Origin: Escherichia phage HC6
DNA: 47,726 nt
Strand: one strand, 5' to 3'
Sequence record: OL362274.1
Both the position numbers and the translations under genes were made by a program. The notes beneath the pieces are model-generated. The model saw nothing but the letters and a program-made list of their open reading frames with translations, did not search any database and was not told the DNA's origin. This document shows positions 21,804-24,519 of this stretch, one piece after another. The stretch's first letter is position 1. Every line of letters begins with the position of its first letter.

Positions 21804-22201
21804 TGCCAGCGAAATTAAGAGGCGTCCGACAGGCCGTAGAGAGAACATCGCAGATTGTGGATGAGATAATCGCCACGAAAGCTGTGCGTGCAATTAAGTC
21901 AGCGACATACATCATCCGCACCGAATCAGCCACGCTAACGCCAATTGATACATCAACGCTAATTAACAGTCAGTTTGATACCGTGGAAGTTAGCGGAACG
22001 CGAATCACTGGCAAGGTTGGCTACTCTGCAAAATATGCACTGTACGTCCACAATGCCAGCGGTAAACTTGCAGGGAAACCGCGCAGCAACGGCAACGGCA
22101 CGTATTGGTCGCCGGGTGGTGAACCACAATTCCTGACCAAAGCAGCGCAACGCACAAAAGACCTTGTTGATAGCGTGATTAAGAAGGAGATGACACTCTA
22201 A
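21803..22201 (+). CDS. tail completion protein (HK97 gp10-like)
   Basis: 132 aa; TLTPIDTSTL resembles the P(V/I)DTG-L motif of HK97 gp10-family proteins. Confidence 0.5.
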   Translation: MPAKLRGVRQAVERTSQIVDEIIATKAVRAIKSATYIIRTESATLTPIDTSTLINSQFDTVEVSGTRITGKVGYSAKYALYVHNASGKLAGKPRSNGNGTYWSPGGEPQFLTKAAQRTKDLVDSVIKKEMTL

Positions 22202-22575
22202 TGAATATGCTTGAACTGGTTGATGCATATCTTCAGGATGCAGGATTGTACGATGGCTGGACTTCGCAGCTGCAGTTCTGGAATGACACCGGAGATGGAA
22301 GTGAGCAATTTATTGTTCTGCAATCCAACGGTGGCACTCAGGTTATGGATGGCCTCGGCGGTGACTTCTATTTTTCGCTGTATGTTGTTGGCAAACAAGG
22401 CCAATACAATGTTGCTGATGTTGATTCGAAGGCCAATGAGATTATCGAATACATCAAAACACACCCGATTGATTCATGCGTTAACTACATCCAGTTGCAA
22501 GCGCCACTTGGCAGGGCAATGCTGACGGAAGAAAAAAGACCAGTGCATGAACTGCTATTGCGTGTTGTGAAATAA
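22201..22575 (+). CDS. putative tail terminator protein
   Basis: 124 aa; positional, before major tail gene. Confidence 0.4.
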   Translation: MNMLELVDAYLQDAGLYDGWTSQLQFWNDTGDGSEQFIVLQSNGGTQVMDGLGGDFYFSLYVVGKQGQYNVADVDSKANEIIEYIKTHPIDSCVNYIQLQAPLGRAMLTEEKRPVHELLLRVVK

Positions 22576-22577
22576 AT

Positions 22578-22602
22578 AAAGCCGCATGAAGCGGCTTTTA
22601 AT
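22578..22602 (+). terminator. rho-independent terminator
   Basis: AAGCCGC-atga-AGCGGCTT then TTAATTT. Confidence 0.55.
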
Positions 22603-22603
22603 T

Positions 22604-22680
22604 TGGTGGACACGGACGGATTTGAACCTTCAATCAGCCGATTATTAGTCGGTTGCTTTAACCAATTAAGCTACGCGTCC
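22604..22680 (-). tRNA. tRNA, anticodon AAT (Ile-like) by hand fold
   Basis: 77 nt cloverleaf on minus strand: 7-bp acceptor stem, GCTT/AAGC D-stem, GGTTCAAATCC T-arm, encoded CCA; anticodon and isotype need tRNAscan-SE. Confidence 0.6.
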
Positions 22681-22682
22681 AT

Positions 22683-23180
22683 AAGTGCTGGTTTAAGCAT
22701 TGCCAGCGTGCTTTCTTAACATCCAGCCCCGTAACCCATACGTACCCCTACATATGATTGCGATAATGCTGGATATTAAGTGTTGTGGTGGCCGGTGCTG
22801 ATCTCCGGCATAAGGCGCTTATTCGGCGGCGTCGAGCTTGCTTATTCGCTTGAGCCATCCTCGTGAGTCAGCCACGTCCCACTGCGCATCAGCCTGCGCA
22901 TTCACCACAACGGAAAGAGCACTGATGCGCTCACTTGGGACTCCTTAGCCATAACCCACGGGCTTCTGGTACACCAATGCTCTTACCTGTTGTGTTCCCT
23001 GACTTATTAATCACACCTCAGGGACGCAGTGCGCCGAATTTGTTTACAAGGAATCGGAAGACCTTGCTGACTTACAGGCTATTACGCCGCCATCAGAACA
23101 ACATCATCGTTTGCATTTATCTTTGTGGTCAGTTTCTAAAAAGTCCGCAAAGTCGCTCACGAAAACTATCTGAAATACAA
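22683..23180. other. ORF-free structured region, candidate ncRNA or cis element
   Basis: about 500 bp with no convincing ORF; long imperfect hairpin 22876..22941 and hairpin TCCCTGA...TCAGGGA near 22993..23021. Confidence 0.3.
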
Positions 23181-23222
23181 TCTACACCACAAAATAATCG
23201 CTGTCAACACCTGTGATATAAT
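23181..23222 (+). promoter_or_regulatory. promoter with extended -10 (TGaTATAAT) and upstream AATCTACACC / TGTCAACAC elements
   Basis: nearly same architecture as 24554..24603; 37 nt upstream of major tail gene. Confidence 0.45.
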
Positions 23223-23258
23223 CACCACGTTAGCAGCTAACACAATTCGGAGATCGAA

Positions 23259-23975
23259 ATGGCTATTTGTGCAAATGATAAAGGCGTTCTGGTCGGTCGC
23301 ATGACCCGACTGTTCCTTGCTGAAGGGTGCGGCGACGCAGTTCCGGATGCAGGCGACTGGAAGTATTTAGGCTCAACCACCAGTAAAGGCGTTGACTACT
23401 CGCCGCAGACCACTACGTCGGAAGCGGATACCGCTGGCGGCTTTGTTTCTACTCTCGTTACCAGCTCTGATATGACCATCAGTGCAGAGGTAGAAATCCG
23501 CAAGAATGACCCGAGCGATGAGTTTGGTTTTCATCGTCTGGTTGAGATTTACGCCACCGAACTGAAAGCGCGTCGTCAGCCTTCTTTGTGGGTACGTGAG
23601 GTAACTGGTGCAACTATCGTTACCGCGTACTGCAACATCACCAGCATCAGTTATGAAGGCGGCACCAACGACATCGTAACTGGCGGCCTTGAGTTCAAGG
23701 TTTACGATTCTGACAGCGTTACCGTCGAAAGCCTTGAGCCACTGAAGTTCACCACCGACCTGCAATCAACTGGCAGCACTGGCAGCCCGTTAACTGTTGC
23801 TGTTGAAGGTGGCGTCGCTCCTTACACCTACGTGTGGCGCAAAGATGGCGCGGTTGTTGGCGGCGAATCTGGCGCATCACTGGCAAGCCCAACTGCTGGC
23901 GTGTATACCGTTACGGTAACTGATTCATCTACTGACCCGGAAATTATTATCAGCACGGCGTGCACCGTATCCTGA
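23259..23975 (+). CDS. major tail tube protein with C-terminal Ig-like domain
   Basis: 238 aa; own promoter and terminator; Ser/Thr/Gly-rich C-terminal domain like lambda gpV Ig-like extension. Confidence 0.7.
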   Translation: MAICANDKGVLVGRMTRLFLAEGCGDAVPDAGDWKYLGSTTSKGVDYSPQTTTSEADTAGGFVSTLVTSSDMTISAEVEIRKNDPSDEFGFHRLVEIYATELKARRQPSLWVREVTGATIVTAYCNITSISYEGGTNDIVTGGLEFKVYDSDSVTVESLEPLKFTTDLQSTGSTGSPLTVAVEGGVAPYTYVWRKDGAVVGGESGASLASPTAGVYTVTVTDSSTDPEIIISTACTVS

Positions 23976-23980
23976 TAAAG

Positions 23981-24010
23981 AAAAAGCCCCGAAAGGGGCT
24001 TTGTTTTATT
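23981..24010. terminator. bidirectional rho-independent terminator
   Basis: AAAAAGCCCC-gaaa-GGGGCTTTGTTTTATT. Confidence 0.6.
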
Positions 24011-24188
24011 CTAGTGGCGGATCTGGTAACGGCATCCAGTGGGTCACGCACTCAACAAGCACGTTATCGCAGTAGAAATCCCAATATCTGTCGTAAGCCC
24101 CAGACCAAATCTCTCCATACTCATTGAATACCAGAATGGCTTTAAATTGCTCCGGCATCCGCTCACTACACTTAATCCACTGGCTCAT
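24006..24188 (-). CDS. DUF551-like protein
   Basis: 60 aa; W.KCSERMPE ... VTHWMPLPDPP matches DUF551 signature as recalled. Confidence 0.55.
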   Translation of the reverse strand: MSQWIKCSERMPEQFKAILVFNEYGEIWSGAYDRYWDFYCDNVLVECVTHWMPLPDPPLE

Positions 24189-24328
24189 ATCACCTTGTCC
24201 TCATCAAAAATCACGCCAATAACGCGAAGTAAGTCTTTCGCCATGCGTTCCGCTTCCTCGTAGTCGTAACCTGCATCAACATACAAATCAGTGTAGAAAA
24301 TCAGGTCAGCTTTTGTTTGTTCGTTCAT
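24185..24328 (-). CDS. hypothetical small protein
   Basis: 47 aa (MNEQTKADLIFYTDLYVDAGYDYEEAER...); ATGA overlap with DUF551 gene. Confidence 0.35.
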   Translation of the reverse strand: MNEQTKADLIFYTDLYVDAGYDYEEAERMAKDLLRVIGVIFDEDKVI

Positions 24329-24519
24329 TTCTTGTCGCCACTGTTAACTAATGCCCAAACAAGTGCCGCAACCCATCCAATAAAGCTCCACCCGACAAGA
24401 ATATTCAGTACACAGATTGCTGTCGTGTTTGTGTGCTTGCGTTGCAAAGCCACAAATGATGGAAGAAGATAAACAAATATAACCAATCCAGCAAAAAGCA
24501 ACAAAATAACAACATCCAT
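24325..24519 (-). CDS. superinfection immunity (Imm-like) membrane protein
   Basis: 64 aa; YLLPSFVALQRKHTNTTAICVLNILVGWSFIGWVAALVWAL fits Imm-family pattern as recalled. Confidence 0.65.
   Translation of the reverse strand: MDVVILLLFAGLVIFVYLLPSFVALQRKHTNTTAICVLNILVGWSFIGWVAALVWALVNSGDKK

Follow-up and report, generated by a model that had tools for sequence, protein, structure and literature searches.

A phage RNA predicted to combine a tmRNA-like tag template with an antisense arm against host tmRNA in the tail module of Escherichia phage HC6

Trans-translation, which relies on transfer-messenger RNA (tmRNA) together with SmpB, is the principal means by which bacteria rescue ribosomes and is also a drug target. 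Short phage-borne transcripts that use a 5' pairing region against an abundant host RNA are exemplified by the small RNA (sRNA) sponges AgvB and AsxR of enterohaemorrhagic Escherichia coli (EHEC) prophages, and we know of no natural RNA that targets or rewrites trans-translation. In the 2014 census of the tmRNA Website, the only phages recorded with ssrA genes were mycobacteriophages and Bacillus phage G, and phage DS6A had a fragment consisting of the tRNA-like domain (TLD) only; enterobacterial phages such as P1 were not in that survey (PMC4131195), and elements of the kind described here escaped it. In cell-free systems, oligonucleotides complementary to tmRNA suppress the release of stalled ribosomes (PMC3384345). 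Here we analysed an RNA element of Escherichia phage HC6, located in a window of 47,726 nucleotides (nt), which is the whole stretch of record OL362274.1 under study. From its sequence features, the region 22681-23258 is read as a minus-strand transcription unit comprising a promoter, a core RNA of about 175 nt, two stalk-loop modules, tRNA(AAU) and a terminator. Sequence comparison identifies the core RNA as a descendant of tmRNA from which the TLD has been lost, preceded by a 5' arm with predicted complementarity to the host tmRNA.

Pattern scans of IMG/VR together with phage loci yielded a homologue set of 126 elements with 22 tags. Collinear alignment of the HC6 element with E. coli ssrA revealed shared GCAAACGA, UAAUA(A/G)CCUG, CGAGGAUG and CAAGCGAAU. 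A permissive Rfam scan of the minus strand matched, over the leader and tag, tmRNA_permuted with 27.0 and 22.1 bits against a gathering score of 47, and beta_tmRNA with 18.1 and 13.4 bits against 84. At the Rfam 15 gathering thresholds, the window and 16 related loci gave only tRNAs and one int-alpA, with no tmRNA family, and E-value scans returned only sub-threshold fragments of tmRNA, PinT and rydB. Of the Rfam check proposed in a first-pass annotation of this DNA, the tRNA came out above its gathering score and no tmRNA family passed in the window; the covariation check proposed there found helices kept by compensatory changes across related phages, as described below.

The tmRNA-like body starts with a single-stranded leader (GAAACUGACCACAAAGAUAAAU, 23115-23136, minus strand), which ends with AUAAAU and places U at -5 and A at -4. 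The leader is 21 nt long and nearly invariant across unrelated phage families. The A at -4 is present in every listed element and corresponds to A86 of E. coli tmRNA; a frame-setting role of U85/A86 in the E. coli RNA is mentioned in one article (PMC2481249). The leader is followed by the tag template (23079-23114, minus strand), with the resume codon GCA at 23114-23112, ten codons to 23085 and the stops TAA TAG at 23084-23079. It reads GCA AAC GAU GAU GUU GUU CUG AUG GCG GCG UAA UAG, encoding ANDDVVLMAA and two stops, compared with ANDENYALAA and two stops in E. coli tmRNA, where the tag starts from GCA at nt 90 and is preceded by AUAGUC. No in-frame ATG, GTG or TTG was found upstream of the tag and an in-frame TAG lies 8 codons upstream, which makes an ordinary open reading frame (ORF) unlikely. 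All of the 22 tags have ten codons, start with AN(D/E), are hydrophobic at positions 6-8 and end with (A/V)A before the stop. Synonymous variation is seen at codon 1 (GCA/GCU), codon 2 (AAC/AAU) and codon 10 (GCG/GCC/GCU), and neither in-frame stops nor indels occur among the 126 tag templates. This pattern indicates a frame that would actually be decoded.

Downstream of the resume codon, the stops are enclosed by an analogue of helix 5 (23067-23096, minus strand), formed by the outer strands CUGA (23096-93) and UCAG (23070-67) and by inner pairs around GUAAUA. A stop-enclosing helix 5 is also present in E. coli tmRNA according to the Rfam structure line. The outer helix covaries between CUGA/UCAG and CUGG/CCAG, all four pairs changing on both sides, with 88.9% of the alignment cells paired. 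Next comes an H-type pseudoknot resembling PK2 (23034-23066, minus strand), in which stem S1 pairs CAAGG (23066-62) with CCUUG (23051-47) and stem S2 pairs CCGA (23057-54) with UCGG (23037-34). This pseudoknot was found in 58 of 61 representatives, with eight sequence variants of S1 and five of S2, all complementary, and pairing is kept at 97.5% in S1 and 88.8% in S2. Tested by anchored searches with a hand-specified structure, the 17 pairs of helix 5 and the pseudoknot are 88.7% paired in an alignment of 40 sequences, against 28-47% when the 3' partners are slid; 12 of the 17 pairs change on both sides, and none of 500 shuffles matched the covariation score. A pairing of the conserved GGCGCA with UUUGCGG and a GUUUU/GAAAC helix were also considered and rejected, as covariation gave no support for them. 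The pseudoknot is followed by a hairpin with the stem UCCCUGA/UCAGGGA and the loop GGUGUGAUUAAUAAG (22996-23024, minus strand), the stem of which varies but stays paired while the loop is conserved. The leader GAAACUGACCA (23115-23136) and the hairpin loop GGUGUGAUUAAUAA (23004-23017), both on the minus strand, are two sequence-invariant single-stranded pieces. The loop UGAUUAA and the nearby UAGCCUG are complementary to adjacent tmRNA sites (nt 236-247), although such 7-mers are expected by chance.

The second distinctive part of the RNA is the 5' arm of about 32 nt (5'-UAGUUUUCGUGAGCGACUUUGCGGACUUUUUA, 23137-23168, minus strand), which is complementary to nt 68-106 of E. coli tmRNA, with MG1655 ssrA taken as the reference. 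RNAduplex predicts 29 Watson-Crick pairs without any G-U pair and an energy of -34.2 kcal/mol. The predicted target covers the 3' strand of pseudoknot 1 (PK1), U85/A86, the resume codon at G90 and codons 1-6. The duplex consists of four blocks: UAGUUUUCGU with ACGAAAACUA (tmRNA 97-106, 10 nt exact, codons 3-6), GCGACU with AGUCGC (86-91, comprising A86, the bases -3 to -1 and the resume codon), UUUGCGG with CCGCAAA (75-81, 7 nt, PK1 3' strand) and CUUUUUA with UAAAAAG (68-74, 7 nt). The chance expectation for the 10-nt exact block is about 0.1, and it is collinear with the three others. Against dinucleotide shuffles, the HC6 arm has a z-score of -4.2; most of 37 distinct arms range from -2 to -5, and two truncated Felix O1-like arms score about +0.7. 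The 126 elements carry 46 distinct arms, and for every one of these the best duplex is anchored at this tmRNA site, by 19-35 pairs (median 30). Cofolding also selects the arm-tmRNA duplex, with a ddG of -12.7 kcal/mol versus -6.9 kcal/mol for the reversed arm. Individual lineages pair in their own ways: CUAUUUU of Felix O1-like arms pairs with AAAAUAG, GCGAUUA of N4-like and Miltonvirus arms pairs with UAGUCGC and takes in U85 and A86, arms of temperate phages and P1 have the additional pairings GUUUUCGUC with GACGAAAAC and CGUU with AACG, and the arm of phage 7-11 adds UCGUCGU with ACGACGA.

The same arm fits its own template poorly. The HC6 arm reaches -33 kcal/mol on the host tmRNA versus -16 kcal/mol on its own template, and across arms the values are -28 to -39 kcal/mol on the host and -10 to -22 kcal/mol on the own leader and tag, compared with -13 kcal/mol for the host's own 5' region. 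The phage sequence AAU GCA AAC GAU GAU GUU differs from the host sequence GUC GCA AAC GAC GAA AAC at just these places: positions -3 to -1 are AAU versus host GUC, codon 3 is GAU or GAA and never the host GAC, Asn is found at tag position 5 in none of the 22 tags, and the host string GAAAAC is never present. The own template thus appears to escape the arm because it is re-coded exactly at the arm-binding positions. The RNA is therefore probably a silencer of the host template joined to a template of its own that resists the silencer.

We propose, at a rough probability of 0.4-0.5, a 'knock-down and replace' mechanism, in which the phage RNA would dock on the host tmRNA, mask the host template and supply its own. 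The RNA would be transcribed early from the multicopy phage genome, from its own promoter and together with the downstream tRNA, and would probably be released by RNase P at the tRNA and by processing at the stalks. Its 5' arm would anneal to the single-stranded template region of the host tmRNA and mask it. Since the predicted pairing of the arm extends to the 3' strand of PK1, the leader of the phage RNA would exit the duplex beside the remaining PK1 hairpin, at the point where the host linker to the resume codon would begin. The phage template would in this way be tethered, at the PK1-proximal end of the duplex, to the alanyl-tRNA-like domain of the host and SmpB. AUAAAU followed by GCA would be offered 21 nt from the duplex, where host SmpB and the charged domain could set the frame. 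Translation by the rescued ribosomes would resume on the phage template, and the tag added would be one specified by the phage, which might change the handling by ClpXP/SspB or re-route the tagged proteins. The missing TLD, the coding constraint on the tag, the conservation of helix 5 and the pseudoknot, which a template requires for its feeding into the ribosome, and the self-avoidance of the arm all fit such a mechanism.

A biological setting can be suggested for it. As the module travels with rare-codon tRNAs, it looks like part of a phage ribosome-stalling kit, and the linkage with tRNAs for Arg(UCU) and Ile(CAU/AAU) suggests a module managing the stalling that occurs on phage messages with many rare codons. 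According to work that PMC11090510 cites, tmRNA is among RNA repair targets and SmpB-like domains occur in defence systems. Since tmRNA is thereby implicated in phage-host conflict and RNA repair, a phage countermeasure against it has a plausible setting.

Several points weigh against the proposed mechanism. The promoter, the 5' end and the pairing are predictions, and the mechanism assumes that the ribosome loads a template held to tmRNA by a duplex alone. The leader measures 21 nt, compared with 12 nt from PK1 to the resume codon in E. coli, the host tmRNA's own pseudoknots would stay in place, and the phage tags remain degron-like. Similar RNAduplex energies were obtained with shuffled tmRNA, and other transcript windows reach -30 kcal/mol. 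The raw energy is thus not convincing by itself, so that the argument was built on the arm shuffles, the exact blocks, the target position, the conservation and the host-versus-own contrast. The 46 arms are not independent tests, because lineages share descent, and with 19-26 pairs the fit to E. coli tmRNA is poorer for the arms of Erwinia and Yersinia phages. A single contig scan with GCAAAYGATGAAAACTA, meant as a test of host-phage covariation for the Yersinia arm (GUUUUCA), returned 120 unrelated bacteria, with no Yersinia among them, and does not count against the pairing.

The best-surviving alternative, which we consider rather unlikely but well ahead of those below, is that the RNA is a pure antisense inhibitor or sponge of the host tmRNA. 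The template would be blocked or the duplex marked for RNase III, which would stop tagging by trans-translation in the infected cell, and the tmRNA-like 3' part would stay untranslated and give only stability or recruitment to S1, SmpB or the ribosome. In favour of such an inhibitor are the complementarity between arm and tmRNA, which is the strongest single feature of the element, and the fact that it requires no unprecedented ribosome step. Synthetic anti-tmRNA oligonucleotides act exactly in this way (PMC3384345), and inhibition of tmRNA is also the role proposed for the TLD-only fragment that mycobacteriophage DS6A carries (PMC4131195). However, pure inhibition leaves unexplained why all 22 tags have ten codons, why codons 1, 2 and 10 vary synonymously, and why the stop, the A at -4 and helix 5 are constant. 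In addition, any stalled ribosome that accepted a tmRNA with a blocked template would remain trapped and be lost to the phage.

Could the element instead be a self-sufficient or two-piece phage tmRNA whose acceptor piece has escaped recognition, for instance in the stalk-loops, in GCCGG-AGAUCAGCA-CCGGC with CACCACAAC, or in the adjacent tRNA? The top Rfam match is indeed a permuted tmRNA model, some upstream modules end with ...CUCUUUCCA right before GUUUUCG and contain a perfect GGGUUCGAAUCCC T-arm, and for a possible 7-bp helix, GGUGUUG/CAACACU, two other phages offer some compensatory change. Nevertheless, neither the window nor any of 72 related loci received a tmRNA call from ARAGORN, and no second T-arm or acceptor piece was found within the 47.7-kb window, the only T-arm being that of the tRNA. 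Helix 2 and PK1 are absent from the element, in which a single downstream pseudoknot and one hairpin are conserved and further modules vary. The distance from the GACUUUGCGG motif to the resume codon is 30 nt, against 58 nt in E. coli. The core, having lost the TLD, is therefore not expected to be chargeable with alanine. No candidate has G3-U70, a free NCCA or the geometry of a 12-bp acceptor/T-stem. The predicted start lies downstream of every candidate 5' acceptor strand, and what stands upstream of the core is the promoter, with no acceptor piece; the 5' strand of the candidate 7-bp helix falls inside this promoter. The minimal versions in Sf13 and Kuttervirus have no room for a TLD and lack the candidate parts entirely, and about half of the elements have no nearby tRNA. 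Moreover, the Rfam scores are far under their thresholds (27 versus 47 and 18 versus 84), and a two-piece tmRNA leaves the anti-tmRNA arm without a reason. We therefore regard this reading as very improbable.

Specific candidates for a TLD were rejected one after another. A full tmRNA using UUGUGGUG, GGUGUUG or AGAUUGU as the 5' strand has no G3-U70 or CCA, these strands are upstream of the start, and they are missing in the minimal versions. The stalk-loops have a tRNA-like topology minus the anticodon arm, but as chargeable mini-tRNAs they fail with stems of 10-19 bp and no free NCCA. In the HC6 element, the T-loop-like loop of GCCGG-AGAUCAGCA-CCGGC is degenerate and non-canonical at 9 nt and is followed by CACCACAAC, with no acceptor strand or CCA. 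In the temperate versions, the upstream stalk-loop ends with ...UUUCCA, where the CC is paired in a 10-15-bp stem and no 5' acceptor strand comes after it.

The element is widely distributed. By BLASTN, parts of the stretch occur in 655 of 50,697 phage records at 70-100% nt identity, including P1, Felix O1-like, Vi1-like and N4-like phages and phages of the BASEL collection. It was also found in 712 of 5,426 complete E. coli genomes (13%), at 221 chromosomal and 548 plasmid places. The core (about 23028-23170) is 70-93% identical among phages with nothing else in common. It is carried by Klebsiella siphophages at the equivalent position of the tail module, N4-like Schitoviridae (IME11, Pylas, TR2), Ackermannviridae (Kuttervirus PhaxI, Miltonvirus KNP4), Felix O1-like Ounavirinae (Sf13, SUSP2) within a tRNA cluster, Chaseviridae (Faunus, PYps23T), phage 7-11, a Jedunavirus, lambdoid prophages between the Q antiterminator and the holin, and P1-like phage-plasmids. 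Among 72 loci examined, nearby tRNAs (39 loci) are always on the strand of the element and mostly downstream, with frequent linkage to the rare-codon tRNAs Arg-UCU and Ile-CAU/AAU. The minimal version of Sf13 spans about 198 nt from the promoter to tRNA-Arg. In P1 (NC_005856), the element runs from record position 68887, unannotated, upstream of tRNA-Asn and tRNA-Thr. It overlaps the end of the annotated 'dicF-like region' (68791-68892) right after the terminator-like hairpin of that region, and an Rfam scan of the region gave no DicF call. Being located in the C1-repressed ban operon, the P1 element is expected to be expressed on lytic induction. Enterobacterial-type elements with 74-98% identity were also noted in the records of Enterococcus phage Efm 3-10 and Acinetobacter phage vB_AbaM_AB4P2, which might reflect wrong labels or mixed records more than a truly outlying host range.

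A functionless, decaying ssrA remnant persisting in a tRNA/'moron' insertion hotspot would account for the missing TLD, for the mosaic, swappable flanking modules and for a region left unannotated or inconsistently annotated in public records. It is still less credible than the two-piece reading: the core is kept in 655 records and across otherwise unrelated phage families, its helices are preserved by compensatory changes, and the frame, the promoter and the complementarity to the host have been maintained while the own template diverged from the arm.

The unit is predicted to be transcribed from a sigma-70-type promoter found by a scan on the minus strand (23179-23207), with TTGACA at 23207-23202, a 17-nt spacer and TAGATT at 23184-23179 (10 of 12 matches). 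The RNA start is predicted near A23171. Independent lineages (Klebsiella SCNJ1-C, Sf13/SUSP2, L039, L157 and KLPPOU148) have their own -35 and -10 elements at an equal distance to GTTTTCG, so that in five unrelated promoter contexts the predicted start is a few bases ahead of the invariant GUUUUCG. What ends at GUUUUCG in P1, in lambdoid phages and in Kuttervirus is instead a hairpin or stalk. A terminator scan found an intrinsic terminator-like hairpin AAAGCCGCTTCATGCGGCTTT with a T-rich tail (22578-22598, minus strand), which would work in both directions, closing the minus-strand unit and being shared with the upstream plus-strand gene. On the plus strand, an extended -10 (TGATATAAT, 23214-23222) before the major tail gene was noticed by eye and was not called by the scan; the RNA promoter and this candidate major-tail promoter would lie back to back in 23179-23222.

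The first-pass annotation had described a long ORF-free stretch beside the tRNA, flanked by tail genes, and had suggested an sRNA or a packaging or recombination site. The 578 bp between the tRNA and the major tail gene (22681-23258) indeed contain no credible ORF on either strand. The longest ORF has 93 codons with a TTG start (22935-23216, plus strand) and no Pfam match, and it matches PHROG 26260 weakly (E = 1e-6). This frame is interrupted or shifted in Kuttervirus, Felix O1-like phages, N4-like phages, Chaseviridae and several temperate versions, and the peptides are unalignable. PHROG 26260 therefore looks like a family of spurious ORF calls over a conserved RNA. It is a 46-aa family matching the antisense of the tag and pseudoknot region, and public records (Bas77-Bas81, BUCT610, SJ46 and others) place one to three 'hypothetical proteins' on the RNA locus; annotation of the region is otherwise absent or differs between records. 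As for the flanks, the gene at 23259-23975 was confirmed as the major tail protein (PHROG 853, E = 1e-84), whereas the label of tail terminator was not confirmed for the gene at 22201-22575, which belongs to PHROG 782, a family of unknown function, and is preceded by a gene for a Neck1/tail-completion protein. The suggested sRNA is upheld in so far as a non-coding minus-strand RNA gene with a promoter, covarying structure and wide conservation is predicted here, but its tmRNA-like and antisense identity had been missed.

A plus-strand protein or a cis-acting packaging or recombination site in the DNA, to which the PHROG 26260 match, the 'hypothetical proteins' of related records and the position inside a structural module might point, is the least likely of these readings, as the plus-strand frame is broken in many lineages, the paired substitutions fit minus-strand RNA helices, the tag shows codon-type constraint, and the core occurs in phages with unrelated packaging systems and lifestyles and inside tRNA clusters, always co-oriented with the tRNAs.

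Downstream of the core, the transcript would continue into lineage-specific modules. Stalk-loop module 1 (22906-22994, minus strand; inverted repeat I1) has the stem CACAACAGGUAAGAGCAUU/AGUGCUCUUUCCGUUGUG and a lineage-specific interior. Its long stem GGUAAGAGCAUU...AGUGCUCUUUCC recurs upstream and downstream of the cores in many phages, with interchangeable interiors. The stem base of these cassettes follows GGUAAGrGCAyU ... AGUGCUCUUwCC, with covarying outer pairs and interiors of 40-60 nt, and further copies were seen in loci L006 (upstream of the core), L046, L080, L103, L099, L187/L188 and L194. Some interiors contain a perfect T-arm (GGGUUCGAAUCCC) and a D-arm-like hairpin with CCGGAGAUC, resembling a tRNA minus the anticodon arm and with no free CCA. 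The cassettes could be processing signals or independent small RNAs. The long imperfect hairpin reported earlier for this region is real, with a perfect 9-nt core GCGCATCAG/CTGATGCGC at 22884-22892/22922-30; however, it joins the interior of module 1 to the start of module 2, is specific to the interior type, and thus belongs to a swappable lineage-specific module and not to the conserved core.

Module 2 (22782-22911, minus strand; inverted repeat I3) is closed by GUUGUGGUG/CACCACAAC. Its interior contains a UGCGCA hairpin, the tmRNA-like CGAGGAUG and CAAGCGAAU, and the hairpin GCCGG-AGAUCAGCA-CCGGC, with sense matches to tmRNA 314-321 and 279-287. The 116-nt interior is 91% identical in Pseudomonas phage vB_Pae_CF121b (locus L315, 901-1016), where the closing helix GGAGAGUGGUC/GACCACUCCCC is different yet complementary and no tag module is present. 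Standing alone in the Pseudomonas phage, module 2 is taken as an independent RNA unit, and its interpretation as a homologue of the tmRNA 3' end was abandoned, although the shared short strings are real. Its GCCGGAGAUCAGCACCGG matches the model of the E. coli sRNA RydB weakly. Between module 2 and the tRNA, a lineage-specific spacer with local hairpins is found (22681-22781, minus strand; inverted repeat I2), and homology to most relatives stops near 22781.

The minus-strand tRNA gene with an AAT anticodon that had been deduced from its fold (22604-22680) was called as tRNA-Ile(aat) by ARAGORN and scored 62.1 bits with the Rfam tRNA model against a gathering score of 29. Its T-stem contains one A-G mismatch. 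A relative has the identical tRNA with a CAT anticodon, so that AAT differs by one substitution, C34->A. In the N4-like phage IME11, this AAU anticodon arm is found on another tRNA body, which makes a sequencing error less likely. With the sequence CGACU-NAU-AAUCG, the anticodon arm is similar to that of tRNA-Ile2 (E. coli ileX). tRNA-Ile2 is an AUA reader that needs lysidine, and an AAU anticodon would read AUU without lysidine. To our knowledge, tRNA-Ile with A34 is normally absent from bacteria.

On the other side of the major tail gene, three small minus-strand genes (23983-24519) lie within the plus-strand tail module, encoding a DUF551 protein, a 47-aa ORF and an Imm_superinfect superinfection-immunity protein. 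The trio separates the major tail gene from the tail gene that comes after it, has a two-way terminator (23983-24002) at the border, and resembles a second moron-type insertion beside the RNA/tRNA insertion.

If the knock-down and replace mechanism is true, phages would control the quality control of host translation at a further, new level: a tmRNA template could be supplied in trans by base pairing, the coding function of a non-coding RNA would be naturally replaced, and rescued proteins would receive C-terminal tags chosen by the phage. The element would also offer a natural programmable scaffold to re-tag stalled proteins or to block tagging. Rfam 15 and the full-text literature searched, subscription journals being outside the coverage, gave no description of the element, tag peptide strings included. 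It has gone unnoticed because tmRNA finders require a TLD and annotation pipelines see nothing or spurious small ORFs.

Compared with bacterial tmRNA (SsrA, RF00023), the element has the same U and A at -5 and -4, GCA resume codon, ten-codon AND...AA tag, stops in helix 5 and H-type pseudoknot. It differs in lacking an acceptor stem with G3-U70 and CCA, a functional T-arm, helix 2 and PK1, so that it could not be alanylated or bind EF-Tu as tmRNA does. In turn, its arm antisense to host tmRNA is not known from any tmRNA. Two-piece, circularly permuted tmRNAs (alpha-proteobacteria, some beta-proteobacteria and cyanobacteria; RF01849-51, RF04321) similarly join a template to a TLD by base pairing. 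In those systems, however, a single gene gives rise to the two pieces, and the 5' acceptor strand belongs to the coding piece, whereas the partner of the phage RNA would be the complete tmRNA of the host, paired through the template and not through helix 2. Phage tRNA clusters (Arg-UCU, Ile-CAU; lambdoid, T1-like and Felix O1-like) share with the element the locus, the strand, probably the transcript and a relation to stalling, but the element itself is no tRNA, and roughly half of its copies stand without one nearby. Sponges of the AgvB/AsxR type target mRNA or Hfq-dependent sRNA, while the element targets, by prediction, tmRNA and carries a translatable template.

The classical anti-ssrA oligonucleotide presumably spans ...GTAGTTTTCGTCGTTTGCGACTA, which is almost the set of blocks in the phage arm. 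Synthetic anti-ssrA oligonucleotides, as used in ribosome display and cell-free translation, are likewise complementary to the tag-coding region and block the release of stalled ribosomes (PMC3384345), but they are man-made DNA and pure inhibitors without a replacement template. The phage tmRNAs of the mycobacteriophage Bxz1 group and Bacillus phage G are likewise ssrA-derived genes in phage genomes, and the TLD-only fragment of DS6A is a partial tmRNA kept by a phage, possibly as an inhibitor of trans-translation in the host (PMC4131195). What these phages carry is either a complete tmRNA or its tRNA-like half, whereas the element described here corresponds to the opposite half with an antisense arm added. 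Even on the minimal reading, as a natural anti-tmRNA antisense RNA, it would be a new class of phage counter-host RNA, and there is a substantial chance that this combination of a tmRNA derivative with an antisense RNA works by a categorically new mechanism.

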